The translations under genes and the position numbers were made by a program. 64,000 nucleotides of DNA from Isurus oxyrinchus (taxonomy: Eukaryota): positions 10,230,001-10,294,000 of the forward strand of contig JANJGN010000039.1 of NCBI GenBank assembly GCA_026770705.1. The letters are read 5' to 3'. How positions within the stretch are numbered: position 1 is the stretch's first letter; every line of letters begins with the position of its first letter. A model generated the notes under the pieces. That model made no database searches. It was not told where the DNA came from and saw only the letters and a list, made by a program, of their open reading frames with translations. Positions 2,941 to 51,545 of the stretch are shown here, in pieces.

Positions 2941-3707
2941 GTACGTCTTTCCATTCAGACATCAACTTGTGGAACATTTTTAACTTTGTTATTGTTCATT
3001 CCGCCTATATTTTGGTAAGACAAAAGTCATTGTGTGCAATACTGATTACATACTCCACTCCTGATCCATCCTCACCATGTCCCCTATCTGCTCATATAAA
3101 AGGATTATCCAGGTGGCTCACAACCTCTGAGGTCCTTTGTCGCAGAGGTAAGTAGCAGTCGGAGAGAAAATCCATTTTAAATGTCTCGTTCTTGTCTTCC
3201 AATTCTTTTTTCAGCTCAGCTTCTCAAGCCTAACCAGCTATCCCAAATTACTGGAACCGCTCTTGTAAGTATCGCCTTTATTCTTTCCCAAACCATTACA
3301 TCTTGTACTCTTCCCCAAACCATTACATCTTCCTGAATGTACGGTGTCCAGTGTTGGACGCAATGCACAGGAAGGGACCAAATTCATGCTTTCCGTAGAT
3401 GTATTGTAAAACCCTGCAATTCGTACCCTCTGCCGAAATTCACAATGTGGGGGATCCCATAAGCAATCTTCAGAGCTTTGGTAGCCTGTCCTGGGACGGA
3501 TAACGGAGAAGGGCAGTGGAAGGAGGGTTATCAGCTGGAAAATAAACCTGTCAAACCCGAAACCCACAGATGAGCGACCAGCATTGTGTCAGCTCAATGT
3601 TACCTTGGGTATAGTAGGAAAGGAGGATTCGCTTGCTTAGATCTGGGTGAGTGCAGGGGGTCAAGAGATTGTAAACCAGGCGGGGAAATCTCACCACGGT
3701 TAGGAGT

Positions 3708-4379
3708 AGATTTGTTGCTATTTGCCACCAAAATCTGAAAAATAAATATTGTACCGAGAAAACGGCGACAGCAGTTCTGGGAACAGTGACCGCGCTGAGC
3801 TGTTTGAAGAACATCACCTGGTATTTGATGCTCACAGGTTAGTATTTACTGAGGAACGCCCCATGGTTATTGTGGTGCAACATTTGCTTTTCAGCTCTCT
3901 CGGGCCAGCTAACGATCTAATTTCTCCATTACATTCTCACCCCCTGTGTCCCATTTACCCAGATTCTGCTGCTCAATGTTCTCACCGTCAGACACATTTT
4001 ATTGAAAGCAGTCCCCGCAAGGAGACTCCGGGCTCAGGGCAATGGGGATAGTTCCAGAAATCCAGAGATGGAGCGTAGGAGGAATTCCATCATTTTACTG
4101 CTCGTTATCTCGTTCCATCCTGTTGTGGGGAATGTTAATATTGTTTCTATCTGAGGCTGAATATCGTTCTTGTGCAATTTGCATGTTAATATAGCTTAAA
4201 TTGTGACGGAATTGGGTTTCATGCTGCAGCTCCTGAGTTGCTGCACAAACACTGGGATTTACACAGTGACCCAGCCGAAGTTCAAGGAACAGTTGACGAA
4301 TGTGCTGAGATATCCCTTTACTCGAGTTCTTCAATCCGTGCAAAGATTCGAAGAAGTTTCTCGTTGGAGAAGCAGCTGA
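3708..4379 (+). pseudogene. GPR139-like GPCR pseudogene, exon 2 remnant (end of TM3 to TM7)
   Basis: Manual translation gives RFVAICHQNLKNKYCTEKTATAVLGTVTALSCLKNITWY ... LTPCVPFTQILLLNVLTVRHIL ... NPEMERRRNSIILLLVIS ... LGFMLQLLSCCTNTGIYTVTQPKFKEQL..RYPF. Several in-frame stops. The TM1-TM3 part of the exon is absent. Confidence 0.9.
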
Positions 4380-6596: not shown

Positions 6597-6602
6597 TTTA
6601 TT
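6597..6602 (-). terminator. Putative polyadenylation signal AATAAA (a second one at 6762-6767)
   Basis: TTTATT on the + strand, about 260 nt downstream of the predicted stop at 6864-6866. Confidence 0.5.
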
Positions 6603-6863
6603 GAGCACAACATTCAAGCAATAACAATAGCACACAAAGTTTACAAACAATCAGATTTCCCGTTAACGCAGATGATCACAGACTGAACCTTGTTCCTGTT
6701 GTAAGCTCAGTATTGAAACACTCAAACCCTTGTAATTGGAATGCATCTTGAATTCTGCCATTTTATTGATGCCTTTCTAACTGAGAGATTTCCTTGTCTG
6801 ACTGTCCATCAATGTAAGCCTTACTTGCTGACCTGCGCAGTTTGACAGGTTTACCCTGTAGAG

Positions 6864-6901
6864 TCAATGGATCATTTCACAACATTTCTCTTGTTGGTCG
6901 C
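6864..6901 (-). CDS. Terminal coding exon of the D8C-like gene: (G)DQQEKCCEMIH*
   Basis: Strong acceptor tttttttatcatttgcacAG|GC. Phase 1 matches the upstream exon. Followed by AATAAA. Confidence 0.6.
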
Positions 6902-7670
6902 CTGTGCAAATGATAAAAAAAACTCACTTTTAACTTGCTCAGAAATAAAATTTCGTGTAAGGAAAATGTCATTCAATCTGCCTCACAGCAGTAACTTCAG
7001 TACCTTCAGCTGTTCCTTTACATTTACTTTCTGTCACAGCAACATGAGCTTGTATTATACAGCAGATCTAACACAGCTCTTGTCACAAGCAATTACTCTT
7101 ATGCCCAATCAAACCTTGACTTGTGAGTCTATTTTTTATTCTGTAAAGCCCAGCATCAAATTAACCTCTCATTCAAAAGAAACATTGATTAAAAACATGA
7201 TACATTCCCAGAGGCTGACCTTCGACAAGGGACTATCTGTTTTCCCTGTGCCCGTTCTCAGTGTTAACAGTTCCTTGAAATTTTAGCGTCTGTAAACAGT
7301 GGGAGAGCTTTAATCGAAACCTTCATTAACCAGGAGATGTTGTCATCCTAAAAGGGTCCGGAGCTGGAGGGTCAGTCTGCCTTCAGTCTGACCATAGCTC
7401 ACTGATTTAAAAGAGCGACCTCATTTTCTATTTAGCAAAGCAAAGGATGACATACGGCCCCACTCTTGTAGTGCGGAGCTGAATCAATAGCAGTATGAGA
7501 ATCACACATGCCTAGTTGTTGATGATCACTTTGCTGAGAGATTCATTGTGTTAAAGAAGCTGAAGATAAAGCAGAGCCGTCATCGAGCAGGTTTGTAAAG
7601 CACACGGAGATAGGATCAGGGCTGCTTAGTGACACTCTCCATCTCTTTCACGGTTCTTGATGGTTCACAC

Positions 7671-7725
7671 CTGAGCACAGACTGTCTTCGCACTTCAACC
7701 GGATTAGACATTGATCCTTCTGGAG
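7671..7725 (-). CDS. Internal exon: LQKDQCLIRLKCEDSLCS(G)
   Basis: Acceptor tttttctgtttgcggcAG, donor G|GTGTGA. 55 nt, phase 0 to 1, open. Confidence 0.6.
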
Positions 7726-7834
7726 CTGCCGCAAACAGAAAAATGACGGATGAGTGACACAATAAAGGGAGGGATTGGGCAGGATGATTGCATATGTGAG
7801 GGATGGACTGATAATGAGAAATATCTCAGTTCTT

Positions 7835-8240
7835 GGTTCATTCATGAGATGTGGGCTTCCAGACATCTTCTGCCCTTGTCCTTTTAGATGGTAGTGGTGG
7901 TGTGTTTGGAACGTGCTAAGGGGCCTTGGTGAGTTTCTGCAGTGCATCTTGCAGATATCACTGTGCATCGGTGGTGGAGGTGGCGATTGTTTGTTGATGG
8001 GGAGCCAATCAACGGGGCTGCTTTGTCCTGGATGGTGTTGAGCTGCTTGAGTGTTACGGAAGCTGCATTCAATCAGGCAAGTGGGGAGTCTGACATCACG
8101 CTCCTGAGTTTTCCCTGTTGATGTTGCACAGCCTTTGGCGAGTTAGGGGGTGAGTTACTCGCCACACGATCCCTAGACTCTGGCTTCCTCTTGTAGACTC
8201 AGCACCTTTATGTACTTCTGTTCATTTTCTGATCAATGGT
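7835..8240 (-). mobile_element. CR1/L2-like LINE 3' fragment (intronic)
   Basis: ORF 7884..8072(-) 'TLKQLNTIQDKAAPLIGSPST..LHHRCTV'. Confidence 0.85.
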
Positions 8241-8369
8241 TCTGGGAAGAACCAGAGGGGAAATATGAACAGTTACCTGAAATGGGAGCTCTCGATCAGT
8301 GAATACAGACTGTGAAAGGGAGGATCTGGTTCATCTCATGTTTGTTCTCAGTACAGTGCATTCTCTAAC

Positions 8370-8455
8370 CCGATCCATAATGATATCCCTCGCTCTTTCT
8401 TCATTGAGCCCTCTCACTGAAGTGACCTTCACGCGAATCGTCTTGTAGTTATTTT
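8370..8455 (-). CDS. Internal exon: (E)NNYKTIRVKVTSVRGLNEERARDIIMDR
   Basis: Acceptor ctgctgtgtttAG, donor CGG|GTTAGA. 86 nt, phase 1 to 0, open, protein-like composition. Confidence 0.6.
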
Positions 8456-9009
8456 CTAAACACAGCAGTCACAACACCAGCTGTTTAAACATACTCTGTA
8501 TTTCACGTAGGGCCCAGTTTGTATTTCATAAAATCACTTCCGTTTATGTTCTGCTTCCTCTAATCCAGCTCTTCTTTCCCTTTTTCAGTTCTCTCTCTCT
8601 CTCTCCATACCTCCCTTCATCTCACTCCATCTTATCTCAATTCTAAACTTCCCGTATATCATTCTCTATCCTTTCCTTTCACTGTCAGCACCTTGTTACC
8701 TCTCCTTATTTCGTTTTCATCCCATGTTTACGTTTTTTCATAGAGAATGATAAAGAGAGAGAGGGTGAGTGGGGGGGGGGGGGGGGGGGGCGGCGGCGGT
8801 GTGGGGAGTTGGGAGGGGGGGTGGCGTGGGGGTGGGGGGTCGTCGGGTGGGATGGGTGGGTGACCGAGAGATGAAGCCATAACTGACACAGAGACAGATT
8901 ATTGAGAAGGAAGCTCAGAAAATATTTACATAGTTGCAGCCCGTGTTTCCAATGATCTCAAACAAAGTGAATACACAATTTGCATTGTTATATTTTGTTC
9001 TGTGTCTGC

Positions 9010-9310
9010 ATCGTGGGCAAGGCCAGCATTTCCTGTCCACTCATAGCTGTCCTTCAGGAGCTAGTGGGCAGCCGCCTTCAGGAAGACCAGCAATCCTTGT
9101 GGTTTCCCATCTTCTGTAGCGGCCTGCTGCTACTTAGTGGCTGCCTGGGCCATTTCAGAGGACAGTCAGGAGTGCACATTGCTGTGAAACTGGAGACACA
9201 TAGAGGCGAGAGCGGGGAAGGATGGCAGCTTTCCTTCCCTAAAGGCAATTCCGAAAGGACAAGGATTTAACACCGATTCTGAATGATTTTTCTGGGCAAT
9301 CAACGGTTTC
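9010..9310 (-). mobile_element. Shark-type SINE fragment
   Basis: 'ggccagcatt..gggccatttcagaggacagtc..cacattgctgtg..ctggagacaca..ggatggcagctttccttccctaaagg', same family as 4720-4965. Confidence 0.6.
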
Positions 9311-9334
9311 CAAGAACCTCTTTTAATACTGAGA

Positions 9335-9490
9335 TCAATAGTGTTTTGGTCTCTCAAGGAATGAATGGATATGGGGAGCTGTCAGGAAAGTGCAGGTGAA
9401 TCCCAAGATGGGGCATGATGGTATTGAATGTGGGAGAAGGCTCTATGAGCCAAATGGTCTACTCCTGCTCCTCTGTCTTCTGTTCTCCTG
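9335..9490 (+). mobile_element. CR1 3' terminus fragment
   Basis: 'ggatatggggag...gtattgaatg..ggag..ggct..gagccaaatggtctactcctgctcct' is a typical CR1 3' UTR end. Confidence 0.6.
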
Positions 9491-9566
9491 TTATGCACAA
9501 CCTCACTAACTGGCTAACCTGATATCATTGATTCACCACAGCGAATCAGTCTGGACCACGACTCAC

Positions 9567-9591
9567 CAAGGAATTCGTCAGAAATCTTCAG
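9567..9591 (-). CDS. Micro-exon: LKISDEFL(E)
   Basis: Consensus donor G|GTGAGT and acceptor ttctgcAG (weak pyrimidine tract). 25 nt, phase 0 to 1, joins the 8455 exon in frame. Confidence 0.5.
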
Positions 9592-10535
9592 CTGCAGAAT
9601 CATCTACATTTCAACTTAGAAATAAACTAGCCGCGCACAAACTCTCAAAGTTCTGGGAGAAACCATCGAAACTTAAAGATCAGCATGGAGCGGGCAACAG
9701 GAGGGAGATAACAAGTGGCAAAGAACTGTAGTGAGGGTGGGGAGCTTGAAAAAAAGTTTGAGAATGCAGAGGTGTGACAGGAAAATGGAGGAAGAGAGAA
9801 AACGTGTCTACTTAGGAAAATTATGCAAATAACTTCAATCACTAAATTCCAATGCACTGACTCACGTCCTCCAGCTTCCCTCAGTAACTGTGTCACACTC
9901 CCTAATTTAATACGTCCCTCTCCCCTCCGTCACTGAGTCGCACTGCCCTCAGTCACTGCATCCCACTCGCTGTAGTCACTGCATCCGACTCGCTGTAGTC
10001 AGTGCATCACACTTCTCTCAGTCATTAAATCCCAACACCTCATTCGATGCATGCCACTCCCTGAGTCTTTGCACCCCACTCCATTGGGTCATTACGTTCC
10101 TTTCCCCTCTGTCACTCCATCACATTCCCCTCAGTTATTAAGAATCACTCCCCTAACTCACTCCATTTAACTACCCCTCCCTCAGTCCGTCCCATCTCGA
10201 GTGAGTACACTCTACCCCCTCAGTCATTGACGCCCGGACATGTCACACGACAGCCAACTCCACGCAGTCACTCTATCCCACACCCATGAATCGTTACATC
10301 CACTCCGCTCAGCTATGACATCCCACTCAACCTAGTTACTACATTCCACTCCCCATAGTCATTGCACCCCACTCACCTCAGGCACTTCTCCCGTCTCCCC
10401 ACAGCCACTGCATCCCATCCTCCTCACTCACTTCTCCTCTCTCTCCACTCAATCACTGCGTCACACTCTCCTCACTCATTGCATTCCACTCCACTAATAG
10501 ATTCGAACCCACTCCCATCAGTTACTGCATCCCAC

Positions 10536-10685
10536 CACGTCAGTCTGTTCAATAAAGTTTTCTGTAGACTTTAAGCTTCTGACTGATAACTGATAGCTAA
10601 GGTCATGCTGGGGTCGATGATGCAGGGTCAGTGGATTTTCCAGTCGAATATTCCTCCGATTCCGGAGTTGGTGTTTTCCCTGGAT
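10536..10685 (-). pseudogene. Stalk-exon cassette copy E: (D)PGKTPTPESEEYSTGKSTDPASSTPA*
   Basis: Acceptor ttaattgcAG|ATCCAGG, TGA at 10603-10605. About 150 bp of upstream intron flank is shared with copies B and D. Confidence 0.7.
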
Positions 10686-11356
10686 CTGCAATTAAAGCAG
10701 ATGGCATGGGAGATGGAAGTGTGCAGATCTCCTCAAGAGATCATTTAGTTGGTGGGAAAGTTGAGAAAATGTTTCACTTCATAATTTATACAGTCTGGAA
10801 TCCATCACTCACACTCTTTTCCGTCACTTCTGACTGCAGCTCAGGAACTAACTACCACTCCTCTCACTCTGTGCGTCCCACCACTGGTCACTCCATCCCA
10901 CTCCCCGACACATTACATCCGAATCTCCGCAGTAACGACATCCCAATCCAGTCACTCATTATATCCCACTTCTCTCAGTCACTGATTCCCACTCATCTCA
11001 ATCACTGCTACCCACTCACCCCACTCACTGCCGACCACCCCCCGAACTTACTCCATCACACTCCCCTCAATTACTGCATCCTACCCCGCGTCACTGCATC
11101 CTATTGCCCTCAGTTACTCGATGACTCTCTCCTCAGCCAACTCCATCCCAATCCCATATCTCACTGCTCCGCAATCCCCTCACTCACTCCTCCCAATTTA
11201 CTCACTCACTGCATTTGACTTTCCTAACTCACTCCATACAACTCACCTGAGTCACCCGGTCCCATTTCGCCCAGCCATGACATACCACTTCCTTCAGTAA
11301 CTTCATACCATTGACTTCCCTTACGACATCCCACTCCCCTAATCTCTGCCTCATAC

Positions 11357-11525
11357 TCCCTTCTGTTTGAGGTTCCAGTGATTATAATGTGTGAGGTTTC
11401 TCTGTACGTTATCCCATCCAGACGGGTAGCTGTTATTTCTGAAGTTGTTGGGCCAGGGGATGCACTGTCAGTGGATTTTCCAGTTGAACGTTGCTCAAAT
11501 TCCAGAGTTTCATTTGATCCTGGAT
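11357..11525 (-). pseudogene. Stalk-exon cassette copy D: (D)PGSNETLEFEQRSTGKSTDSASPGPTTSEITATRLDGITYRETSHIIITGTSNRR
   Basis: Acceptor cttcattgcAG|ATCCAGG. Stop-free (ORF 11224..11571), but the candidate donor GTATGA falls in phase 2. Confidence 0.65.
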
Positions 11526-12340
11526 CTGCAATGAAGTAAGGAAACATGGGCGATTGCAGTGTCTGAATCAACTCAAGAGATCATTGAGTTGGCAGTAAAG
11601 TTGAGAAAGAGATTCACTTCACCATTAATACTGTCTGATTTGCACCAATTTCACACTTCTCTCTCACTCCTGATGTGGCCCAGTCACTAATTCCCATTCC
11701 CCATCTCTCAATACATCCCACTCCCCTCAGTCAATACATCCCACTACCGTCATTCATTATACCATACTCTGACGTCACTGCCTATCACTCGACTCAGTCA
11801 TTAACTCACTGTCCTCACACTCTCTGCACCCCAAACCCTCACTCAGTACTTCCCCTTCACTTCAGGCACTGCATCTCACTCCCACCAGTCACTTCATCGC
11901 ACTCTCCTCAGCCTTGGCATGCCACTCTTCTCAGTCGCTATATTCCACTTCCCTCAGCCTCTACATCCCACTGCCTCCAGCCTTTTCATCTGGCTGTCCT
12001 CATTCATAACATCCCACTTACCTCAGTAACTCCATTCCACTCTGCTGCGCCTGTTCATCCCACTCTGCACAGCCTCTAAATCCAACTCTCCTCAGTTAAT
12101 ACATCGCAATCCCCTCAGTGAATACATTACACTTCCCTCAAACATGGCATCCCTGTGCCCTCTGTCACAACATCCCAATATGCTCAATTGGTATACCCAC
12201 TTCCCTCAGTCATGTGAATCCATTCCCCAAAATCGTTGCATTCCACTCGCTTCAGTCACTACACCTCACTCCCCTGAGTGAATATAACGCACTGCATCCC
12301 AGACCACAGCGTCACGAGAAACCATTTTCCCCAGCCTCAC

Positions 12341-12447
12341 CATCCCGCCAATTTTGAAATGATATTTCCCCGATCATGTTGTGTGAAGATAATCTGTAGA
12401 ACATTCCGTCCAGACTGTTTTGAAATTTCAGAACCTGTTGGTCTTCA
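12341..12447 (-). pseudogene. Stalk-exon cassette copy C (5'-truncated): RPTGSEISKQSGRNVLQIIFTQHDRGNIISK
   Basis: 'IFTQHDRGNII' aligns with copy B 'IFTQYDRRNVI'. Donor-like GTGAGG at the satellite boundary. Confidence 0.6.
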
Positions 12448-13143
12448 CTTGAATTTTTACAATGTCACTGCACCCCATTCCATCCCAATCACCTCAGTCA
12501 CTGCATATCACTTACCTCGATTAGTGCATCCCACTCCCATCAGTCACTACAGCCCATTCCCCAGAGTCACTGTATCTCATTCCCTCAGTCAATACATCTC
12601 ACTCCCTGCAGGCACTGCATCCCATCGTCTCCATCAATGCATCTCCCTCCCCCAGGTTACTACATCCCACCTCCTCAGTAACTACATCCCATCTCCTCAG
12701 ACACAGTGTCTCACTCACCTAGGTCTCTCGAATGCACTGCCTCCAGACACTACAGCCCACCTTCCTCAGTCACTAGGTCCCAATCCCCTCAATCACTGCA
12801 TCCAGCTGCGCTCAATCGCTATAAACTACTCCCTTCGTCAAGACATCCCACACGTCGCCGTCATTCATCCCTCTCCCCTCAGTCACTACATCCCACTCCC
12901 CTCAGTCTCACCATCCCACTCCTCTCAGTCACTACATACCACTCCCCTCAGTCTCTCAATCCCGCTCCCCTCAGTTACTACATACCACTCCCCTCAGTCT
13001 CACCATCCCACTCCTCTCAGTCACTTCATTCCACTGCGCTCAGTCAGTATACTCCACTGCCCTCGTCATATGTCTCGGTCTCCTCAGTTACTACATACCA
13101 CTGCCCTCAGTCATAAGTCCCACTCACTTCATTATCTCCATAC

Positions 13144-13307
13144 CACTTCCTTTAGTATGACATTTCGGCGATCATATTGTGTGAAGATTTGATGCCGACT
13201 TTGCGCTTCACCTCATGTTTCTGATCTTGTTGGGCTTGATGAGCAAGGGTGCGTGGCTCCTGGAGTGGACTGTTCTTCAGATTCCGGAGTTGTTGTTATG
13301 CCTGGAC
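13144..13307 (-). pseudogene. Stalk-exon cassette copy B: (G)PGITTTPESEEQSTPGATHPCSSSPTRSET*GEAQSRHQIFTQYDRRNVILKEV
   Basis: Acceptor cttcactgcAG, donor GTG|GTATGG. 164 nt, phase 1 to 0. A single TGA at 13213-13215. Confidence 0.7.
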
Positions 13308-13880
13308 CTGCAGTGAAGCCAGGCAACATTGGAGATTGCTGCATTCGTATCACCTCAACAGATCATTTAATTTGTAGGAAGTTCAGAAAATGATTCATTG
13401 CATCATTTATACAGTTTGAAACCCACCAATGCCACTCTTCTCTCTCAGTCCTGAATGTATCACAGTCAGTAACGCCCACTTCACTAGTTCACTACATCCG
13501 ACTTTCGTAATTTGCAACATCCCCCTCCCACAAGTCACTACACCCCACTGCCCTCAGTCACTACAGCCTCCCACTTTCCTCTGTCTCCACGTCCCAATAC
13601 ACTCAGTCGCTACACCCACTCCCCTCAATTACTGCCACTCCCTTCAGCCACTACATCTCACTGCCGGCAGTCTCGACATCCAACTCCACTAGGTCACTGC
13701 TTCCCACAACCCTCACTCACTGCTGCCTACTACTCTGATTCAATGCATCCCATCCCCTGTATTACTCCCACCACTCAGTGCATCCCAATACATCAGTCAC
13801 TATATCCCACACCCCTCAGTTACATCCAGGGCCCCTCCGTCACAAAATCCATCTTCCGTCAGCCTCTCAGTTCTCCTCAC

Positions 13881-14045
13881 TTCAGTGTGAAATTTCACAG
13901 ATATTTTTGAGCGTTTATTATGTGAAGAATGCCCTCTACAGACGGGTAGCTGATATTTCAGATCCTGCTGAGATCGATGATGGAGGGAGAGTGGATTTTC
14001 GAATCGGGCGTTCCTCAGATTCCGGATTTTTTATAAACCCTGTAT
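13881..14045 (-). pseudogene. Stalk-exon cassette copy A: (D)TGFIKNPESEERPIRKSTLPPSSISAGSEISATRL*
   Basis: Homologous to the other copies. Acceptor mutated (gcAA), several stops, upstream flank replaced by a LINE. Confidence 0.65.
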
Positions 14046-14061
14046 TTGCATTGAAAGAAGG

Positions 14062-14375
14062 AGTTTCTTCTTGGTGGTAGCGGTCGTGGATTTGGAAGGT
14101 CCTATATCTAAGGAGCCTTGCTGAGTTCCTGTCGTGCCTCTTTTAGATGGTGCGATCTGCTTTCACTCTGCTTCTGTGGTGGAGGGCGTGAACGTTTAAG
14201 GTGTTGGATGAGGTAACAATCCAGCCTGGTTGCTTTGTCCTGGAAAGCGTTGATCTTCTTGAGTTGTTGGAGCTGCAATTATCCAGGCATTTGGATATTA
14301 TTCCATCACACTCCTGACGAGTGCCTTGTAGATGTGGAAAGATGCATTGTGGACAGGCTTTGGGGAGCCAGAAGG
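14062..14375 (-). mobile_element. CR1/L2-like LINE 3' fragment
   Basis: 'tgctttgtcctgg..ttccatcacactcctgac..gtgccttgtagat..ggacaggctttgggg' is the reverse of LSTIYKAQVRSVMEY. Confidence 0.8.
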
Positions 14376-14519
14376 GGATTAGTGTGGGTAGTTAATTAGT
14401 TAGTGTATAGAGGAAGATTGAACGATGTTAATGCCTTTGGGTGTCAGGGGTGGGGTGGAAACTTAGCTTCTCTCTTGTTGGTTACAATCATTTCCTGGAT
14501 ACTGTGTGGTGCGAATGTT

Positions 14520-14830
14520 ACTGTCCACCTATGGGAAGGCTGTGGCATAGTGCTAATGTCAGTAAAGCAGTGATCCAGTCTGCCAGGTTCATGGCCAGGA
14601 GACACAGGCTCACGCACAACCACTGCAGCTGTTAAATTAAATGCACTGAGTAAATCTGGAATATAAAGCCAGTCTCAGTAACTGCGAGTGTGAATTCATG
14701 TGGTTCATTTTTGGGAAGGAAACCTGCCGTCCTTACCTGGAGTGGCCAACACGTGACCGCAAACCTACAGCAATATACTCGAATCTGAAATGGCCGTGCA
14801 ACACACTCAGTTGTCTCAAACCGGTATCCA
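14520..14830 (+). mobile_element. Shark-type SINE
   Basis: 5' 'gtggcatagtgctaatgtcagt..cagtgatccag' head, then 'aaatctggaat..agccagtctcagtaa' and 'gggaaggaaacctgccgtccttacctgg'. Confidence 0.6.
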
Positions 14831-14959
14831 CAAAATGATATTTCATCTGCCTTTGTTCTCTATGTCCCCACTGATATCACTGACGACTTCCATCTCTCTG
14901 CGGTTCATGTGCCTGCACTACCACCCTTCTCACTTTATCTAGTTTATCAGAACGTGTCC

Positions 14960-15115
14960 CTGTGCATTTCCTTTTCAACTGGTACCATCCTTCCTGAATT
15001 TTGTTATCACACTTCCAATTGCCAGAGCACACAGTCCAAGGACAATCGATGCTCTGCCAAGCCTGGTCCAGGACTGTGTGATTCACACACCAGTAAGTGA
15101 TTGCCGAGTACATGA
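14960..15115 (-). pseudogene. D8C (uromodulin/GP2/OIT3 decoy-type) domain exon, internally deleted
   Basis: Acceptor ttttgtctctcAG. Encodes YWCVNHTVLDQAWQSIDCPWTVCSGNWKCDNKIQEGWYQL, matching D8C DPCxNxTxLDxPWRS...CD..L..GWYRF. It then jumps to KCT(G) with GG where a GT donor is expected. Confidence 0.8.
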
Positions 15116-15419
15116 CTGAGAGACAAAATGTGTTTCACGTTAATATAAAAGAAAGTTAAATTTGCATAGCGAATTCATTGTAACGCCGAAGGCAGCAATA
15201 ACATCAGTTTCTCTGCCTCCTGCTTGAAATAGTCGCAAGTTCAAGCTTGATTCATTTCTCCTTCTTTTAACTAAGTTTCCGTCTGTCACCCAGCTCAACC
15301 TCCCCCTCCAACTAACTTCTCCCAAACAGAATTTCCAATTCTAAATTAACCATTCCCACTTAGTTAACATAACTTAGCAACAGCCTCAGCATCAACTCAA
15401 CCTAACAGAAACGCTGCAA

Positions 15420-24425: not shown

Positions 24426-24589
24426 AATGAATTGTCAATTTTGAGATGTGTAAACTGCTTATTTTGATCAAATATTAAACACAACATGATCAATCGTTGT
24501 GAAATATAATTGCTGGTGTGAATGCTCTCTGCAACATAGCGACTCCATAGATACTTATCCAAAACATATAACTCTCCAATTATTGAAAG

Positions 24590-26560
24590 GAGGGCCGCAC
24601 TCTCAGAGGTGCAGGACTGAGGAACTGCAGCACTCTCGGATGTTCAGTAGAGAGGGAGAGCCACACTGACGGAGGGTCAGTAATGAGGGAGTGCCAGACT
24701 GTCGGAGGTACGGTGCTAAGGGAGTGCTGAACTTTCATAGGGTCAGTACTGGGGGAGTGCCACATGGTCAAAGGGTTAGTACCGAGGGTGTGTCAGACTG
24801 CCAGAGGGTCGGTACTGATAGAGTGCCACACTCTCAGAGGGTCAGTACTGAGAGATTTCCGCGCTTTTGGAGGGTCAGTAATGAGGGAGTGCCAGACTGT
24901 TGGAGGCTCAGTGCTGTGGGAGTGCTGAACTTTCATAGTGTCCGGACAAAGGGAGTGCCACACAGTCAGAGGATCAGTAGAAATGTCGTGCTGTAGTGTT
25001 TCAGGGTCAGTAATATGGAAGCACCACACTGTAGGAGGGTCAATAATGAGGCATTGCCATACTGAGGGCGTGCCATCATGGCGGAAAGTCAGTACAGAGG
25101 GAGCAGCATACTGTCTGAGGGTCAGGACAGAGGGAGCAGCGTACTGTCTGAGGGTCAGCACAGAGGGAGCAGTGCACTGTCTGAGGGTCAGGACAGAAGG
25201 AGCTGCGTACTGTCTGAGGGTTAGTACAGAGGGAGCGGAGTACTGTCTGAGGTTCAGTACAGTCGGAGCGGTGTAATGTCTGAGGGTCAGAGCAGAGGGA
25301 GCGGTGTACTGTCTGAGGGTCAGTACAGAGGGAGCGGTGTACTGTCTGAGGTTCAGGACAGAGGGAGCGGCGTACTGTCTGAGGGTCAGTGCAGAGGGAG
25401 CGGTGCACTGTCTGAGGGACTGGACAGAGGGAGCGGTGTACTGTCTGAGGGTCAGGACAGAGGGAGCGGTGCACTGTCTAAAGGTAGGACAGAGGGAGTG
25501 GTGTATTGTCTGAGGGTCAGTACAGAGGGAGCGGCATACTGTCTGAGGGTCAGGACAGAGGGAGCGGTGTACTGCCTGAGGGTCAGTACAGAGGGAGCGG
25601 CGTACTGCCTGAGGGTCAGTACAGAGGGAGCGGTGTATTGTCTGAGGGTCAGGACTGAGGGAGAGCCTTGCTGTCTGAGTGTCAGTTCTGGGGATGTCCC
25701 ACACTCTTCGAGTGTCAATACTGAGGGAGTGCCTAGCTTTCTGAAGGTCAGCACTGAAAATCTGCCTCACTGTAGTAGAGACAGTACTGAAGAGTGCAGC
25801 AAAGTTGGAGCATCAGTGCTGAAAGTTTTAAGCTTTCATTGAAGTTCAGTTCTAAGGGAGTGCTGCACTCTCGTATGGTTAGTGCTGAGCGACTGCCGCA
25901 GGATTGGAGGGTTAATAGAGTGCTGCACTGTCTGAGGGTCATTTATGAGTGTGCGCCGATCCTCCTGAGTTCAGTACTGAAGATGTGCCGCACTCTTGCA
26001 GGAGCTTTAGTAGAGGAATGCTGCAATAATCAGAGTGAATGCCTAGCTCTTGCAGTGTATTACTGAGGGATTGTAGCGCTGTCAGAGGCTATGGACTGAT
26101 GGTGATCAATACCGTTAGAGGATCAGTATGGGCGGAGTGCCACACTCTCAGATGGCCAGGACGGAGGGAGAGCCATCATGTAGGAAGGGCCAGAACTGAA
26201 GCAGAGCCGCACTGTTGGAGGGTAGATACTGAGGGAGTGCAGAACTGTTGGAGGGTCACTATTGAGGGAGTGCTTGAAGTCAGATTGTCATGACTAAGGG
26301 ACTGCTGCAGTGTCAGAGGGACATTACGGAGGGAGAACTGCACTGTCCTAGGGACAGCACTGAGGGAGCACCACGCTGTTGGATGGGCAGTACTGCGGGA
26401 GCGCCGCACTGTCAGAGGAACTGGATTGAGAGAGTACTTAACTGTCAGAGAGTCAGCACTGTAGGATTGCCACACTTTCGGACGGACTTTACTGAGGGAC
26501 TGTACTCTGGTAGCGCTGCACTGTCAGTTTGTCAGTACTGACGGGAAGTTGCACTGGCAG
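24590..26560 (+). repeat. 33-bp satellite array (CACTGTCGGAGGGTCAGTACTGAGGGAGTGCTG-like)
   Basis: 33-bp period, giving the 11-aa repeats in ORFs such as 24793..25770. Near-identical core at ~25090-25680. Confidence 0.95.
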
Positions 26561-31064: not shown

Positions 31065-34000
31065 GATGTCACAATGTCTGAGGGTCAGTGCTGAGGGAGC
31101 GCCACAAAGTTGGGGCATCAGCACTGAGAGAGGGCCAAACTGGCGGAGAGTCAGAACTGAGGATGTACCACACTGTTGCATGGTATGTAGTGATGTAGTG
31201 CTGCGGTGTTTGAACGTCATTTCTGAAGGAGTGCAACGCTGTAGGGGGGTCAGTACTGATGGAGTACTGCACTATTGGGGGGTCAGATATGAGGGGGCAG
31301 CGCATTGTCAGAGGGTCAGTAGTGAGGGAGTACTCCATTTTCAGAATATCAGTACTAAGTGATAGTTGCTCTGTTGGACAGTCAGGTCTCTGGAATTGAC
31401 ACACTGTCAGGGGTTAAGTACTGAGTGAATGCCGGCCTGTCAGATGTTAAGTTCTGATGGAGAGTCGCACTTTCAGAGAGTCAATTCTGAGGCAGTGTTC
31501 CCTGTCAAAGGATCAGCAATGAGGGAGTGCTGCAATGTCAGAAGGTCAGTACTGAGGATGTGTGCAGCTGTTGGAGGGACTGTACTGAGGAAGAGCTTCA
31601 CTGTCCCAGGCTCTGTGGTGAAGGACTGCAGCAATAATGGAGGGTCAGTACTGATGATGTGCTGCATTGTCGGAGGGTCAGCCCTGAGGAACTACCGCAC
31701 TTTCTGAAAGTCAGTACTGATGGAGTACAGCACTGTCAGTTGGTTGGTACTGAGTGAGTACCGCACTGTCAGAGGCTAGTTGTTGATGGAGTGCTGCATG
31801 ATCGGAGGCTCTGATGGAGTGTCGCACTTTCAGAGAGTCAGTGATGAGGGAATGTCACACTGTCGGATGTTCATTTCTGAGGGATCGCCACAGTGTCGGA
31901 GGGTCAATATTGAACGTTTGCTGCACTGTCAGAGAGTGTCAGACATGATACAGTGTCACTCTGTCAGAGGAACAATAATTAGGAAGTGCCGCCTTGACGG
32001 AGAGTCAGTACTGAGGGAGTGCCACGTTGTTGGATGGTCTGCACAAAGGGAATGCTGCTCTGTCTGAGTTTCTGTGCTGAGGGAGTGCTGCCCTCTCGGA
32101 TGGTCAGTCCTAAGGGAGTGCAGTGATGTCGGAGGTTCAATACTGATTTAGTGCCACCCTCTCACATATTCAGTACTGAGGGAGTGCCGCTGTCTCGGAG
32201 GGTCAGTGTTGAGCGAGTGCCACACACTCGGAGGGAAATTACTGAGGGAGCCCTGCACTGTCGGATTGGCAGCACTGAGGGAGCCCCACACTATCCGCTG
32301 GATATTTGTGACTGAGTGCGCCACTGATGTATGATCACTAATGAGGGTGTACCGCACTGTCACAATGTCACTACTAAGGGAACGCCACACTCTTGAATCA
32401 ACAGTACTGAAGGAGCTCTGCAATGTTGGCGGATAACTATTGGTGCTGCACTGGCAGCAATTCTAACATGCAGCAATAATATGTTGGCCAAGTATTGAGA
32501 GCAGTTAGGGGACATCACCTTAAAATTGGATTTGGGCCATTGATGGTTTATATCTGGATCAGAGAAACATATACAAGACAGTGGAAAGATGTTAAGTGTG
32601 TCAATTTGGAAGGCCAAAATATAAATTAATGGGCCTTTTTTACGTATGAACATTAAAGGTTCTGAGTGCAAGCTGAGTTACCTTTGTGATAATACAGATG
32701 TGTGGTAGATCCCCTGAATACTGCAACCAGTCTAAGAGGGTTCATTACCTTCTTCTGTTCTCATATTTAAAACAGATCTCTGTTCCCTTTCTCCTGTTTG
32801 CACATGTTCCTGGATGTGTGGTTTCTGAGAGATTTTATCTCCAACCTTCTTGTGAGCAGTAACTGACAAACACAGCAACATCACAAATATTTATAGGCTG
32901 ACATTTCCTTGTACCAGATAACCAGTGTGCTGCATTCAAATGTGCGCCACGCAGAGCCTGTCTCCATCACATGACCTCAGTATTGACAATGGCCCCACAA
33001 TGTGGATCGGGGAAGGTGAAGAACAACCCTGGGAATTGGATTAGCTCACTGAACCGGCCTTTGCAGACCCTAACCAATAAAAACAGGAGGATATTAATCT
33101 CACACTTTGCGTTTAAAAAGGGTTGTTTGTTTGTATAAACTTAGACTGTAATTAATTTAACAGTGATCTGGCTAATCACTGGAACTGGAATTAAGCCTTC
33201 AAACCTGTTTTAGTTGGACAGAGATAGAACTATCATGCAGAGTCTAAAGCACTGCATTAACGAATAATACTGACGTTTATTGAACATATGCAAAATTAAA
33301 CAGCAATGCAGTAATCAAACAATCAAAGGCTCATCCATGAACTTGTTCAATCAACTCAGACTGATCCAATTGTTAATAAGAGGAGACACAATGGAAAGTA
33401 TACATTTCAAGAACACCCTGCAATCGCCTCCCTTTCAAATGTTCCCCCCAATCTTTAAGGAGTGGATGACAATCTTAACCGAGTCCCGGTCCCCCACGCT
33501 GACGGCTGTTGATCAAAGGACACTGCACCTTCCTGGAATCCACACTCTCAGGAAATCTCCTCTGCCTGCCCCCTGGGGCTAGAGCTATATTCATTCAGGG
33601 GTTGTGGGATTCGTCAGGTGGGCCGGCATGTATTGCCCATCTCTTAATGCCCGTTTGGGAGGCGGTTATGAGCTGCTTTTTTGAAAGGCTGCAGTCCATG
33701 TGATGCAGGTGCACCCACAGTACTGTGCAGGAGGGAGTTCCATTATGTTGACCCAGTGATGTTGAAGGAACGGCCAATATATTTCCAAATAAGAATGGTG
33801 AGTGGCTTCCAGAGGAATTTCCTTGTGGTGTTGTTCCAATTTTTCTGCTGCCCTTGCCCTTCTCGATTGTATGGTTCGTGGGTTTGGTAGGTGCTACCGA
33901 AGGAGACAAGGTGAGTTGCTTCAGTTCATCCTGTAGATGGTACACGCTGCTGTTACATTGTGTCAGAGGTGGAGGGAGTGAATGTTATTTGATGTGGTGC

Positions 34001-36255: not shown

Positions 36256-39200
36256 GATGTTGCAATGTCGGGTGGTCAGTGCTGAGGGAGTGCCGCACTG
36301 TCGGAGCATCAGCACTGAGAGACGGCCAAGCTGTCCGATGGTCAAAAGTGAGGATGTGCCACACTGTTGCATGGTATATAGTGAGGTAGTGCTGCAGTGT
36401 TTGAAGGTCATTTCTGAAGGATTGCAGTGCTGCTGGAAGGTCAGTAACAATGCACTAGTGCACTGTTGGATGGTGTGCATTGAGTGGGCAGCGCATTGTC
36501 AGAGGGTCAGTAGCGAGGGAGCACCCTAAAATTAGAATGAAAATACAAAGGGATTGTTGCTCTGTTGGAGGGTCAGGTCTGTGGAAATGGCACACTGTCA
36601 TGGTGTAAGTACTGAACAAACGCCGAATCATCGAATGTACAGTTCTGATGGCGAGTCGCACTTTCAGAGGGTCAATTCTGTCAATGGATCATACTGAGGG
36701 ATTTCTGCACTGTCAGAAGGTCAGTACTGAGGAAGCCCCGAGCTGTTGGAAGGCCGGTACTGAGGGTACGCTGCATTGTCGCAGGCACTGTAATGAAGTA
36801 GTGCAACACTGTTGGAGGGTCAGTACTGATGATGTGCTGCACTGTGGGATGGTCAGTGCTTAGGCAATACCGCACTTTCTGAAAGTTAGTACTGATGGAA
36901 CACAGCAATGTCAGGTGTTCGGCATGGAGGGAGTGTTGATGCAATGCCGCACTATTGACGGATATGTTTTGATGGAGCGTCGCACTGTCAGAGGGTCAGT
37001 GCTGAGGGAATGTCACGCTGTCGGATGGTCATTTCCGAGAGAGTGCTGCAATGTCCTTTTCAGTACATGAGCATTTTCTGAGCATAGAGTCAGAACTGAG
37101 GGAGTGTCGCTCTTTCAGAGGAACAGTAATTATGAAGTGCTGTACAATCAGACGGGCCACACTGAGGTAGTGCCACCCTGATGGAGAGTCAGTACTGAGG
37201 GAGTGCCGCGCTGTCAGAGCATCTGTACAAAGGGAATGCTGAGGTTCAGTACTGATGTAGTGCCAACCTGTCAGATGGTCAGTACTGAAGGAGTGCCGCT
37301 GTCTCGGAGGATCAGTGTTGAGGGAGAGCCTCATTATCGGAAGGACATTACTAAGGGAGCACCGCACTCTCGGATTGGTAGTACTGAGGGAGCCCCGCAT
37401 AAAACGCGGGTCACTTGTGACTGAGTGCTGCATTGCTGGATGATCATTCCTGAGGGAGTACTGCACTGACAGGAAATCAGTATTGAGGCAACGCCACTCT
37501 CTCGGAGGGACAGTACTGAGAGATCTCTGCAGTGTCGGCGGGTCACTACTGAGGAGAAGCTGCACTGACAGCAATTCTAACATGCAGTAATAAGATGTTG
37601 GCCAACTATTGTGGCAGCAATTCTAACGTGCAGTAATAAGATGTTGGCCAACTATTGAGACCAGTTAGTGGTCTGCTCCTGAGGGATCATAACCTTAAAA
37701 TTGGATTTGAGCCTTCACAGTTAATATCAAGAATCATATAATCACACACAAGTCAGTGGAAAGAGGTTTGGCCTGTCAATTGGCAATGTCAAGGCATACA
37801 TTGATGGGTCTCTGTAATGAAAGTTGATAAACTTTTCTGCATGCAAGATGGGTAACTGCTGTAAAACTACGGATGTGCTTTGGATCCTGTGAATAATGGA
37901 ACAAGGCTCAAGGAAAGTATTACCATCTCCACCTCTCATATTTCAAACAGCTCTCTGTTCGCTTGCTCCTGGTTGCAGATGTTCCTGTATGTGTGGTTTC
38001 AGAGAGAACTTATCTCCACCTCTGCTCTGAACAGTCAGTCAAACAAAGTAACCTCACAATTATATAGATATAGGCTGACCTTTCTATGTTTCTGACGCAT
38101 GAGGTGCAGCATTCAATTCTGCTCAGCACAGAGCCTGTCTCTATCACACAACCTCAGGATTAACAATGGATCCATACTGTGCGTTGGGGTGCGCTGAAAA
38201 TCTACCCTTCACCCCTGAGTTAGCCCAATGAAACGGCCATTGAAGAACATTAGACATAGGAGCAGGGGGAGTTTAATCTCACCATGTAAATTTAAGAAGG
38301 GTTGTTTGGTTTGATGAAATTAGATTTGAATTTATTTAGCATTGAACATACCAATTACTACAACCTGAATTAACCTTTCAAACGGCTTTAGTTTGAAAGA
38401 GACCGAAACATCAGAATGTCTTAGACACTGAATTCGGAAATAATACTGACATTTATAGAACAGAAGCAAAATCAAACAGCAAAGCACTTATAAAAATACG
38501 AAAGTCTAATCAAACAATTTGTTCAATATACTAAATCTTAACCAATAATTAATAAGGAGTGGCGCAGTGGAAAGTATATGTAACAACAGTGCCATACCGT
38601 AGTCACACTTTCAAATGGATGCTCAGACGGTAAGAAGCGGATGAGAATTGTAACCACTACTCCACCCCCTGCGCTGACAGCTTTTCACCGTAGGACACTG
38701 AACCTCCATGGGATCCACACTGAAATGAATTCTCCTCCCTCTGCCCCCTGGGCACAATGCCACACTCTCCATATTTTTCTATTAATTCATGGGATGTGGG
38801 ATTCCCAGGGTTAGCCAGCATTTATTACCAATTCCTAATTGCCCCTTGAGAAGTTGGTAGTGAGCTGCCTTGTTGAATGGCAGCAGTCCATGAGGTTCAG
38901 GTATACCCACAGTGCTGTTAGGGATGGAGCTCCATTTTGTGCACCAGTAACGGTGAAGGAACAGCCGATAGGTTTCCAAGTGAGGACCATGTACGTATTC
39001 GAGGGGAACTTACAGGTGTCTGCTGCCCTTGCCCTACTGGATGATAGGGGTCGTTGCTTTAAATGGTGCTATCGATATAGCCTTGGAGAGTTGCTGCAGT
39101 GCATCCTGTAGATGGTACACAGTGATGCTACATTGTGTCGGAGGTGGAGGGAGTGACTATTTATTCATGTGATACCAATCAAGCAGGGCTGCTTTGTCCA

Positions 39201-46620: not shown

Positions 46621-47859
46621 ATATGCCGGGAACATTACACAACATTGAACATTAAATTTTCAGACCCAAAGACAACTTCAGTCCTCCAACAGTCTCCAGG
46701 ATTGGCAACGAGAGGCAGGTTATGTTATGTCAAAGGGGCAAAAAAAAACTGTTCCAAATATCAGGTAGAAGTTTCCTTGTTTTCAAAACTCATTTCATTA
46801 TAAGGAAACTTGAATTTGCATGAATGCTACAATTTCTATCCCGGATGAATGATAATGTTTCAGCCAAACAGCACAGCCAGTAGTCACGTTACCTCAGTGG
46901 GATGGGCAGTGCTGGATGTATTATTAAAGAGTCTGACACCAGGCACAGCATATTGTACCTGAGAGTGAGGACATCGCAGGTGAAAAGGACAACCAGTGCA
47001 TCTCACAGAGCATTTGAAAACTCTGGTATGTAGTCAGCTGTGAAAGGGCCTTTGAATACGTTCAGGAATTTGTCACTTTCTGGGTGTTGGCTCGGTGGGG
47101 TGTGTCTGTTGCTTGTCCTGTCCGCGAACAGGGCTCAGTAATGGAATTGTGTTCGAATATTAGCAGGGTGTCTATACAGGAGGCCTTGAAGGAGGAGCTG
47201 GAGAAGAGAGTCGGTAGGTCAGTAAGACATCGACATTAAACCATTGAGACAATTGAACAAGGAAAAAGGGAAGCATTGGAGCCAAGCAATTGGTGTTGGT
47301 TCAGGACATGTAAGAATGAGCTGAAGAAGAGCCATATGGTCTTGAAACGCTAACTCTTTTTATTTCTCCACAGATGATGTTAGACCTGCTGAGCATTTCC
47401 AGCTCTCTCTGGTTTTGGTTTGGGGTTGAACTCCATATGTTGGGGTCCCAATGAGGTTACGGTTCACCCACTACAAACCACCAGTCCACTGCCTCACTAC
47501 CTAATTAAATTGCCCTCATTTTCCCTATTCCAGTTACTCCCCCTAATGCTAGTTCTTTGTTTTCCTTCCCAGAATATCACCCAGTGATGTGGACTCTGCT
47601 GCTGATACCCGGTTTCATGGGTAAGTTATTTACTTTGTGACCAATCTCCTCCATGTTCACATAAAATTGTTACAGAGCGAAACTTAATTTGTGATATTAT
47701 TGAGGGTGGTTCCACTGCTGTACCTGGGACTCAAGAACAGATGCCATTGTTACCAATGTACACGGAATATAAAGTTATTAAGAGATGTTGTTCACAGAAT
47801 GGACAACAGTGTGTCAATTGGGCTGGATTGTAGCCTCGTGGGAGCTCATACAGTCTGGA

Positions 47860-48899: not shown

Positions 48900-49110
48900 C
48901 GTTATCGCTCCTTCACTCAGTGGGAACAGTTTCTCTTGATCGACTCTCTCTCCAGGCCCTCAGGATTTTGAACACCTCGAACAACTCTCCTTTCAGCCTT
49001 CTCTGCTCCAAGTTAAATAGGCCCATCTTCTCCAAGCTATCGATGGAACTGAAATAACTCATAACTGGAACCATTTCTGTGAAACTTTTCCACGCACTCT
49101 CCAAAGCCTT
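48900..49110 (-). mobile_element. CR1 fragment
   Basis: ORF 48913..49128(-) 'LEKMGLFNLEQRRLKGELFEVFKI'. Confidence 0.85.
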
Positions 49111-51545
49111 CACAGACCCCACATTCAAACTCTCTCCCTCCCTCTATCACACACACTTACACTTGTTCTTTCTCTCTGTCAAACATACTCACATTCTCCC
49201 CCTCTTTCACACACACTTAGACTCTCTCCCTCTTGCTCACGCAATCAGCTTCTTCCCCTCTCTTTGTCATACACACTGACATGTCCCCTTTCTCACTGTA
49301 ACACACATTCAGACTCCCCCCTCTCTCTGTCACACACAATCACACTTCCTCCCTCTCAATCACATATACTCACACGAACCCCATCTCCATCCCTGACACT
49401 CACAATCTTCCCTTCTCCTTGTCAATCACACACACATACTCGTGTATTTTTTTCACACAAAGTGGCACCCTCCCCGTCTCTCACTCACACGCACTCACAT
49501 TCTCCCCCTCTCTCACACAGACTCTCTCCCCCACTCTCTGCCATAGACATTCACATTCATGTCCTCTCTCTCTCAAAATCCCTCCCACTCTTTCTCACAC
49601 TCAACCCCACTCTCAGTCACACTCACTTTCTACCTCGGTCACACTCACCGCCTCAATCTCGCCACTCACACTGCCACAAACACTCACACTCTCCCTCTCT
49701 CTCTCCCTCTATCTCCATCTCCTCCTTTTTCTTTGATACATATATTCACACCCCCTTGCTCACTCATAGACAAAAGCTCCTCCTTTCTCTCTCCTGCTTT
49801 CTCTCTCCCCTCGCTCTTTTACACACGCTATCGCCCTCTCTCTCTCTCTTTCTCCCTCTCTCACAATCACACTGCCCCCTCTCTCTCAAACACACTCTCA
49901 ATCTATACCTCACTCTCTGACACTCAGACCCTGCACTTCACTCTTTCACACAGATACACTCTGAACATCACTCTCTCACGCACATTCTGCACCTCACTTT
50001 CTCACATTCACCCTCTGCACCTCTCTCACTCACAGTCTCCTCCTCTCTCTCATTCAGAGTCTCATTCTCTCTCTCACATTCAATGCCCCCCTTTCTCACT
50101 CAATGTCCCTATCTCTCAGTTGGATTCTCCGGCTCTCTCAGTTACCCTGCCTCTCTCACACATTTACAATCTCACTCATTCACTTACAGTCTCGTACTCC
50201 CTCACATTCACAGCCTCCCACTTTCACTTACAGTCTCCTTTCGCATACAGACTCCCTCTCTCTAACATTCAGAGTTTCATTCTCTCTCTCACATTCATTG
50301 TCTCCCTTTCTCACTTACCCGCCCTCTCTGTCAAATTCACAGTCTCTGCTGCCCTCTAACTCAGTCTCACTCTCCCTCTCCCCCGACAGTCAGTCCCTAT
50401 CGATCACAGTCCCACTCTCTCTCATCCATTATCTGTCTCTCTATCTCACACACACATTCACTGTTTCCCTCTCTCACACACATTCACAGTCTCTCTCCCT
50501 CTCACAATCTCCCTTTCTCTTACCTAATTCTCCCTTACACTCACTCACAGTTTGTGTCTCTCGCTAACAGCCTCCGCCTCCCTCTCTCACTCAGTCTTCC
50601 TCTCACACACTCACTGCCTCCTTCTCCCTTACGAAGTCTCCACCTCTCAGTCTCCCCCGTCTCAGACTCTCCCTCTGTGTCCCTCTCTCTCTCACACACA
50701 CACATTTACAGTGTCCGTCGCTCTCTACCACAGTCCCTTCTCTCTCACTCACAGTCTCTAACTCACACTCTCTACAACTCAATCTCTCTCTATCTCAATT
50801 TTAGTCTCACTCTCTCACTCATTTTCCTTTCTCACTCTTTCACAGCCTGCACCTCCCACACACAGTCTACCTCTCTCTCTTTCATTCACATAATCTGTCT
50901 CCCTCTGTCATTAATATTCATTCTCCCTCCCTTTCATATTCACAGGCTCAATCTCGCTCATATTCAGTTTTCCTCTCTCACTCCCTCAGTATCCTTTTCT
51001 CTCTCACTCAGTCTCCAACATTCCTCACTTAGTCTCACTCTCCCCCTCTCTCATACTCAGTCCCTCCCACTCACTCAATATCCCTTTCTCTCTCATATGC
51101 ACGATCTCATCTCTCGCACGTTCACATTCTCCCTCTGTCTCACACAAATATTCACATTCTCCACCTCTCTCACACGCACATTCACAAATTCAGTCTCTCT
51201 CGCTCTCTCACACACACATATCCAGTCTCCCTCTCTTTCACATCCAGCTTCCCTCTCTCACATTCACACTGTTTCTCTCCCTCACATTCACAGTCTCCCC
51301 GCTCTCACATTCACAGTCTCCTCTCCCTCATATTCACAGTGTCCCTCTCCCTCGCATTCAGTCTTCCCCTCTCTCACATTCACGGTCTCACGCTCTCTCA
51401 AGTTCATACTCTCCTTCACTCTCACTCATATCCCTATTTCTCACTTACAATGCCCTCGCCCCCCCCCCCATCTCAGTCGCCCACTCTCACTCTCTCATAT
51501 TCCGCATCCATATCTTTCTCACAGAGTATCACTCTCCCACTCTCT
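49110..51545. repeat. (CT)/(CA)-rich low-complexity tract (CTCTCTCACACATTCACAGT-like)
   Basis: Pyrimidine/CA composition with almost no G on the + strand. Yields spurious S/L/H/T ORFs. Confidence 0.95.

Follow-up and report, generated by a model that had tools for sequence, protein, structure and literature searches.

A broken copy, most likely dead, of a predicted secreted, ZP-less D10C gene family in the shark Isurus oxyrinchus

Does the 64-kb stretch of Isurus oxyrinchus DNA analysed here (assembly GCA_026770705.1, contig JANJGN010000039.1, positions 10,230,001 to 10,294,000; hereafter the window, numbered from its first letter) hold a working gene for a secreted relative of GP2 and uromodulin or only the wreck of one, and what might such a protein do? 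A preliminary description, made from the letters alone, had proposed a secreted D8C protein with a stalk rich in serine, threonine, proline and glutamate (S/T/P/E), a C-terminus of its own and no ZP domain. The window is repeat-rich DNA with no long open reading frame (ORF) that resembles a gene, and the locus in question, on the minus strand from 15115 to 7648, was assigned through its homologs to a gene family of sharks and rays whose proteins carry D10C domains (the D8C of Pfam). It is a broken copy of that family and most likely dead. Our joint reading, to which we give a probability of roughly 0.62, is that the window holds a dead copy of a secreted, ZP-less D10C family, the members of which are likely to be soluble glycan decoys for bacterial adhesins.

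The assignment began with exon A, the exon at the 5' end of the minus-strand locus, which covers the first third of a D10C domain. A full HMMER scan of 1.84 billion representatives with this exon returned 40 proteins at E<=0.001, their best stretches lying mostly inside the first ~50 query residues, and Pfam D8C_UMOD (PF23283) is present in 32 of them. The homologs were recovered by this full scan only. Pfam gave no family for any of six window queries, exon A included, so that the Pfam check proposed in the preliminary description produced no match for either the D8C exon or the tail; exon A found nothing among PDB sequences or in the ESM Atlas, and a word-index search gave two candidates, neither of them significant. 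A chance repetitive match, P0030 (P numbers are our labels for homologous proteins), was excluded, and P0012, which has a different D10C type, was kept out of the profile, C-terminus and module counts. The named homologs span 16 genera, ten of sharks and six of batoids, with the lamniforms Carcharodon and Cetorhinus nearest to the window copy.

Judged from these predicted proteins, family members almost certainly consist of a signal peptide, then one to five D10C domains, an S/T/P/E stalk and, at the end, a short tail, and have neither a ZP nor an EGF domain nor a hydrophobic C-terminus. A profile of nine tails recovered 29 proteins among 8000 scored candidates, all of them from elasmobranchs, 23 with D8C and none with ZP, and a whole-protein profile recovered 53 among 5701 candidates, 50 with D8C and again none with ZP; EGF is also absent from the precomputed domains of both sets. 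Direct Pfam scans for ZP or EGF found neither in sets of 40 and 21 proteins (PF23283 being present in 15 of the 21), in the window no EGF or ZP exon was detected in the interval from stalk to tail, and none of 79 proteins reaches a hydropathy above 1.6 in its C-terminal 19 residues, a measure of hydropathy only, no dedicated predictor of glycosylphosphatidylinositol (GPI) anchors having been run. Counted in gene models rather than transcripts, homologs of the 3' exons do occur together with D8C, and no ZP domain appears in the paralogs. The secreted D8C family with its own C-terminus that had been proposed from the window alone therefore holds in the predicted proteins, and the intact paralogs that had been named as the real target were found.

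Elasmobranch proteins of the family contain one to five D8C stretches, several loci occur per species, compact intact members, such as XP_072329629.1 or the X7 model of Carcharodon LOC121274779, measure about 190-300 residues, and many homologs sit on short scaffolds. The intact proteins are already known in the sense that RefSeq holds them, under the names 'uromodulin-like', 'GP2-like', 'OIT3-like' and 'uncharacterized', which are misleading since none has a ZP domain, and multi-D10C clusters of fish have been published; a literature search, covering mostly open-access text and top matches, returned no description of a ZP-less D10C family in elasmobranchs. Among 113 stored proteins, 51 end in the tail type of the window (type A), 21 in a type B, and 41, many of them partial models, in neither. 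P0013 and P0015 have near-identical exon-A heads on different tail types, which suggests exon shuffling. The family would evolve by birth and death, through duplication and loss of phase-1 stalk cassettes, and its stalks would be O-glycosylated. Type B tails (P0001, P0010, P0015 and others) have two invariant cysteines and look unrelated to type A; homology of the two types is unsupported at an hhalign probability of 8.6% over 22 columns.

How close are these proteins to the known decoys? Passages of the structural work on GP2 and uromodulin describe their decoy module as a beta-hairpin plus a D10C domain with five disulfides and with a FimH-binding oligomannose glycan at GP2 N65, the residue needed for FimH binding; they link the hairpin to keeping this glycan high-mannose, and they also place D10C in LZP/OIT3 and VWDE (PMC8930769). 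The D10C sequence and predicted fold of this module (PDB 7P6R, 7PFP) are common to intact relatives. P0068 can be aligned to GP2 7P6R (E 7e-26) beginning at the Asp-Pro-Cys of D10C, and the AlphaFold model of P0022 matches the same structure at E 1.5e-14 with a root-mean-square deviation (rmsd) of 1.7 over 127 columns, so that this one member is predicted to have the D10C fold of GP2. In 99 distinct elasmobranch modules, C1, C4, C5, C7, C8 and C10 are kept in 94-99, and C2 and C9 co-vary (both present in 38, both absent in 48, discordant in 13). Unlike GP2, these modules have no cysteine at the C3 and C6 positions where these could be located (96 and 90 modules), so that there is no C3-C6 bond, and they have an extra cysteine pair between C1 and C2 (92 and 87 modules). 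An N-x-S/T sequon at C1+2 aligns with GP2 N65 and is found in 43 of the 99 modules; 50 of 76 proteins have it at least once, and it is kept in the closest homologs and in the window, where exon A reads N-H-T. In place of the EGF, ZP and GPI or transmembrane segments of GP2 and uromodulin, the elasmobranch proteins have tandem D10C domains, a mucin-like stalk and an unrelated tail. The lack of these segments, together with that of the hairpin and the C3-C6 bond, sets them outside the ZP-module family, D10C-bearing as they are.

The nearest described relative is zebrafish omc5, which keeps both ZP and GPI. According to the passages of the omcin paper that bear on it, omc5 combines five D10C domains with EGF IV, ZP and a predicted GPI anchor; bacteria induce it, and its absence shortens survival under bacterial exposure; the same passages call the omcin family (zebrafish omc1-15) teleost-specific, note short members of 200-600 amino acids and do not discuss cartilaginous fish (PMC11415648). 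The elasmobranch family resembles the teleost omcins in being multi-copy, with a variable number of tandem D10C domains and frequent gain and loss, and differs from omc5 in having no EGF IV, ZP or GPI.

Against this background the window copy can be read exon by exon (Table 1). RefSeq models of Carcharodon (LOC121274779, XP_041038352.1) and Cetorhinus (LOC144672631, LOC144673262) share its exon 1, signal-peptide exon, exon A, 32-residue cassettes and type-A tail. Most Carcharodon and Cetorhinus models have a complete D10C domain and open cassettes, whereas the window copy is without the second and third D10C exons (B and C), and every one of its upstream exons is damaged. Exon A has GA where the donor GT should be, and reading through reaches a stop at 14879-14877. 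It reads Y-W at the D-P of its homologs and W-Q at their W-R; all 119 distinct module starts of the homologs have the P before C1 and the R after W, and 113 have the D. Its identity is 31/48 to a Cetorhinus protein and 29/48 to a Carcharodon protein, which share 44/48 with each other.

Truncated models (P0002, P0020, P0023, P0026) suggest that the D10C domain is split across three exons. When 89 homolog segments were used to build a profile for each part, part A scored 60.8 bits at exon A, and parts B and C stayed below 0 bits throughout the 64 kb in every frame, so that of these three exons the window copy has exon A alone and no complete D10C domain. The D8C exon of the preliminary description is thus homologous to GP2/UMOD-like proteins, as it had supposed, but amounts to the first third (C1-C2) with the rest missing. 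The sequence that follows exon A was considered as a decayed remainder of D10C or as another domain and ruled out, since neither the profiles nor Pfam gave a signal there in any frame. A conserved intron block precedes cassettes c1-c3, and in front of c0 an interspersed repeat stands in its place; this exchange marks a probable deletion of exons B and C, with a breakpoint near 14062. In the Cetorhinus LOC144673262 models P0064 and P0065, and also in P0026, exon A in another frame is joined straight to a stalk cassette, and loss or skipping of exons B and C therefore recurs in the family.

The stalk proposed for this locus is borne out by four related 96-nt phase-1 cassettes, which match the 32-residue repeats of the homologs and have S, T, P or E at 17-22 of 32 positions each, and by the remnant of a fifth. 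Their donor positions in c2 and c3 were inferred by homology, that of c2 from the homologs' 32-residue cassettes and from c0. At the donor position of c0 (13949), all covering contigs from the sequencing runs compared below (one in run X2, two in run X7; two species) read the base that would give GT. In total, five upstream exons, exon A and the four cassettes, each carry a disabling lesion. The 5' damage noted earlier is real at exon A, but it is not confined to that end.

The tail is better preserved. In the closest homologs the last stalk cassette is joined directly, in phase 1, to the equivalent of tail exon 1, which in the window has an identity of 25/28 to both P0064 and P0066 and of 27/29 to P0013. 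Tail exon 2 has 17/25 to P0064 (Cetorhinus) and 19/25 to P0066 (Carcharodon), these two sharing 23/25, and the window shares a short deletion of the type-A tail with the models of both genera. Of the four chained 3' exons that had been predicted, the two at 8455-8370 and 7725-7648 match homologs, while 9591-9567 and the segment from 6901 onward found no support. The 25-nt exon 9591-9567 (minus strand) was rejected: the closest homologs have no counterpart of it, a start in phase 0 does not fit after a phase-1 cassette, and its splice-site pattern occurs 92 times in the window (50 on the minus strand, 42 on the plus strand), so that it is probably a chance splice-like pattern. The predicted splice from a 7671 donor to 6901 is not borne out by P0064-P0070, in which the 7725 exon is the terminal coding exon and passes that site to a stop equivalent to window 7650-7648; the models P0063 and P0013 appear to splice at the equivalent site, to other sequences. 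From 6901 onward the window matches none of the homolog C-termini compared, and 6864..6901 is at most an alternative last exon or an untranslated-region exon. The expected AATAAA signals are present. As for the cysteine-containing tail, the family does keep two cysteines, but the third cysteine of 7725-7648 replaces an arginine of the lamniform homologs, and the Cys-Cys from the 6901 segment is unsupported.

The 5' exons of the family lie on the opposite strand of the window. Family exon 1 and the signal-peptide exon were found near 47 kb on the plus strand, with no exon A or other D10C exon after 47620 on that strand up to 64000; no second signal-peptide exon or second exon A was found in the window, and none on the minus strand in 49 kb. 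The plus-strand exons belong either to this gene, as its inverted 5' end, or to a divergent paralog that continues past 64 kb. With exons B and C absent, a GA donor, ruined cassettes and a signal-peptide exon on the opposite strand, a D10C protein is therefore impossible from these exons, and no open frame with canonical splice sites runs from start to stop on one strand of the window copy.

Contigs from sequencing runs were compared over 13780-15400 in four of 24 listed runs. A contig of 713 nt from run X2 spans 14709-15400 with six differences from the window, and exon A and the next 260 bases are therefore not peculiar to this assembly; the stretch 14263-15229 is tiled by contigs from a second species, with about 89-96% identity. 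Depth is 285 in the X2 contig and about 50-150 in the paralogous contigs that lie on the exons; the broken unit itself may be multi-copy, contig depth being no copy number. At 80% likeness, neither exon A nor c0 was covered in two RNA-type runs labelled with the same species, which says nothing either way on expression.

Several observations, here and in the discussion of function below, count against the joint reading, and they are best weighed with its rivals. Decay is uneven: exon A has diverged further than the tail (Fisher p 0.015 with Carcharodon and 0.12 with Cetorhinus as the reference), and tail exon 1, at 25/28, has hardly diverged, a pattern not expected if decay were uniform. This imbalance, and the two open tail exons with canonical sites, would fit tail exons that are still alive, either joined, past the ruined exons, to intact 5' exons that lie outside the window at more than 49 kb upstream or giving a stalk-plus-tail or tail-only product, and Cetorhinus P0064 and P0065 are indeed stalk-plus-tail models without D10C. 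Those models, however, begin inside exon A in the other frame and look like a gene predictor's rescue of a broken transcript; tail exon 2 has six to eight differences in 25 residues, the Arg-to-Cys change included, where intact relatives differ by two in 25; and no minus-strand signal-peptide exon was found in 49 kb. We consider a live tail improbable. Still less probable, and in our view hardly to be expected, is that an assembly artefact in a collapsed, satellite-rich tandem cluster accounts for both the missing exons and the 5' exons on the opposite strand. The heavy satellite content and the many homologs on short scaffolds speak for it, no listed contig over 13780-15400 spans that whole interval or bridges the junction near 14062. 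Against the joint reading also stands that only one of the six differences of the X2 contig is listed, so that the GA donor is without independent confirmation from a run that is possibly not independent of the assembly. What speaks against an artefact is the X2 contig itself and the second-species tiling, and point lesions in five separate exons would persist despite a wrong join. The copy is thus still best read as dead.

Table 1. Features of the D10C-family locus in the window, with strand and state
Feature	Position	Strand	State or note
Exon A	14971..15115	-	145 nt; good acceptor; first third of D10C (C1, inserted Cys pair, C2)
Interspersed repeat fragment	14067..14341		7 similar copies elsewhere in window; very high contig depth; presumably LINE-like
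Stalk cassette c0	13950..14045	-	96 nt; acceptor AA for AG, donor CT for GT
Stalk cassette c1	13212..13307	-	96 nt; splice sites intact, TGA in last full codon
Fifth-cassette 3' remnant	12421..12441	-	7/7 residues identical to P0077
Stalk cassette c2	11430..11525	-	96 nt; frame open, donor position CT
Stalk cassette c3	10590..10685	-	96 nt; two in-frame stops, donor position TT
Degenerate 23-bp minisatellite	9877..13752		fills inter-cassette introns; duplicated along with cassettes
Tail exon 1	8370..8455	-	phase 1-0; splice sites intact; strand-like segment and predicted helix
Tail exon 2, coding to stop	7648..7725	-	phase 0; internal GT at 7670
Proposed last exon	6864..6901	-	good acceptor; no homolog support
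Candidate polyadenylation signals AATAAA	7140, 6767, 6602	-	sequence motif
Family exon 1	46902..47025	+	open frame, GT donor; 36/41 identical to Carcharodon P0066, E 7.7e-31
Signal-peptide exon	47573..47620	+	AG and GTAAGT intact; 15/16 identical to P0070

What, then, would the intact proteins do? We put it at even odds that family members act as bacterial decoys, an analogy drawn because of the GP2 fold and the sequon, and because of zebrafish omc5. A glycan at the site equivalent to GP2 N65 would bind fimbrial lectins, and multivalency would come from tandem D10C domains, possibly with self-association of the tail, instead of from ZP filaments.

The tail offers few clues of its own. Pfam has no family common to more than one of nine tail members and no SEA match, and the tail has no significant match to PDB sequences and none in the ESM Atlas. 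Its monomer model, with a predicted local distance difference test (pLDDT) score of 76.7, has one helix (residues 22-40) and unpaired flanking strands; Foldseek gave no match for it at E<=0.001, nor did a second look at Z>=2, and a wide structure search returned none of 48,161 chains at Z>=5, the best row having Z 3.9. Three of the top ten rows were chain B of the MUC1 SEA structure 2ACM (Z 3.3, rmsd 3.3, 46 of 47 residues aligned), Gpr126 6V55 (Z 3.0) and chain B of GPR110 8HC0 (Z 2.9), all within noise; the matched ranges of 8HC0 and 6V55 we take to be SEA. The elasmobranch tail is about half the length of an SEA domain, and a half-SEA tail would need a partner, since each cleaved half of MUC1 SEA contributes two strands to one sheet, as passages of PMC10556640 have it. 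It is a tentative and rather unlikely idea that the beta-alpha-beta tail of about 50 residues is a free half-SEA module that would pair with itself or with type B and so complete an SEA-like sheet; a large family with rapid turnover would then give multivalent, combinatorial soluble decoys with shuffled heads, stalks and tails in place of the ZP filament.

The function has its own counter-evidence. All homologs are RefSeq or UniRef gene-model predictions, and since the searches were seeded from the family, elasmobranch D10C proteins with ZP were possibly missed. No beta-hairpin was found before D10C, the GP2 alignment starting at D10C itself, and in the 12 upstream segments inspected, of 17 with two or more cysteines, these belong to the previous module or to the signal peptide. 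The N65-type sequon is missing from 56 of the 99 modules. Our literature search turned up no binding, expression or tissue data for any member, and the names uromodulin, GP2, oncoprotein and D8C are absent from one shark skin-mucus proteome, in the text and one supplement, a result that depends on database names (PMC10707392). Such points would suit a family that is no decoy even though this locus is dead, but, for example, a structural component of mucus or matrix or a module for protein binding similar to the D10C of OIT3/LZP or VWDE, proteins in which D10C is described in the passages cited above (PMC8930769): the sequon is in less than half of the modules, the hairpin is wanting, C3 and C6 are replaced, and the family goes unnamed in that proteome. 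Yet the family is like the omcin cluster in its lineage-specific multi-copy expansion, its variable number of modules and its frequent broken copies, and passages of the zebrafish paper give that cluster an antibacterial phenotype (PMC11415648); the sequon equivalent to N65, which the closest homologs retain, is common among family members. We regard a non-decoy family as unlikely, though the likeliest of the three rivals weighed here, and keep to a dead copy of a family of likely decoys.

Other features of the window stand apart from the D10C locus. At about 3700-4320 (plus strand) lies a pseudogene of a rhodopsin-family G-protein-coupled receptor (GPCR), with stops and with a Pfam 7tm_1 match at E 3.1e-5, below the curated cut-off; it is matched by P0016, a model that fuses such a GPCR to D8C domains. 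GPCR and D8C genes may be neighbours in another species too. Sharks have many scattered GPCRs of this rhodopsin-family kind, and human GPR139 presumably adjoins GP2 and UMOD. The interval 49100-64000, about 15 kb, is satellite DNA with a strong strand skew, made up mostly of a 19-bp unit (about 323 copies at 57770-63845), and gives many spurious long ORFs, and dispersed 33-bp satellite arrays with long open frames on both strands lie at 24589-25686, 31216-32283 and 37280-37399. A reverse-transcriptase-like fragment at 55253-55149 (minus strand), which we take to be a retroelement, is matched by P0029 through its C-terminus, which is mis-predicted.

It is the family and not this locus that is the useful result, the locus itself being a gene wreck of little weight. 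The D10C decoys described so far, GP2, uromodulin and omc5, sit on ZP filaments or GPI anchors, whereas elasmobranchs have many predicted secreted versions without ZP, with a changed set of disulfides and a tail that fits no known class. If these are decoys, they would form a part of elasmobranch mucosal defence that has no description in the literature searched, and nature would have provided in them a way to test whether a decoy can work without polymerisation or the beta-hairpin.

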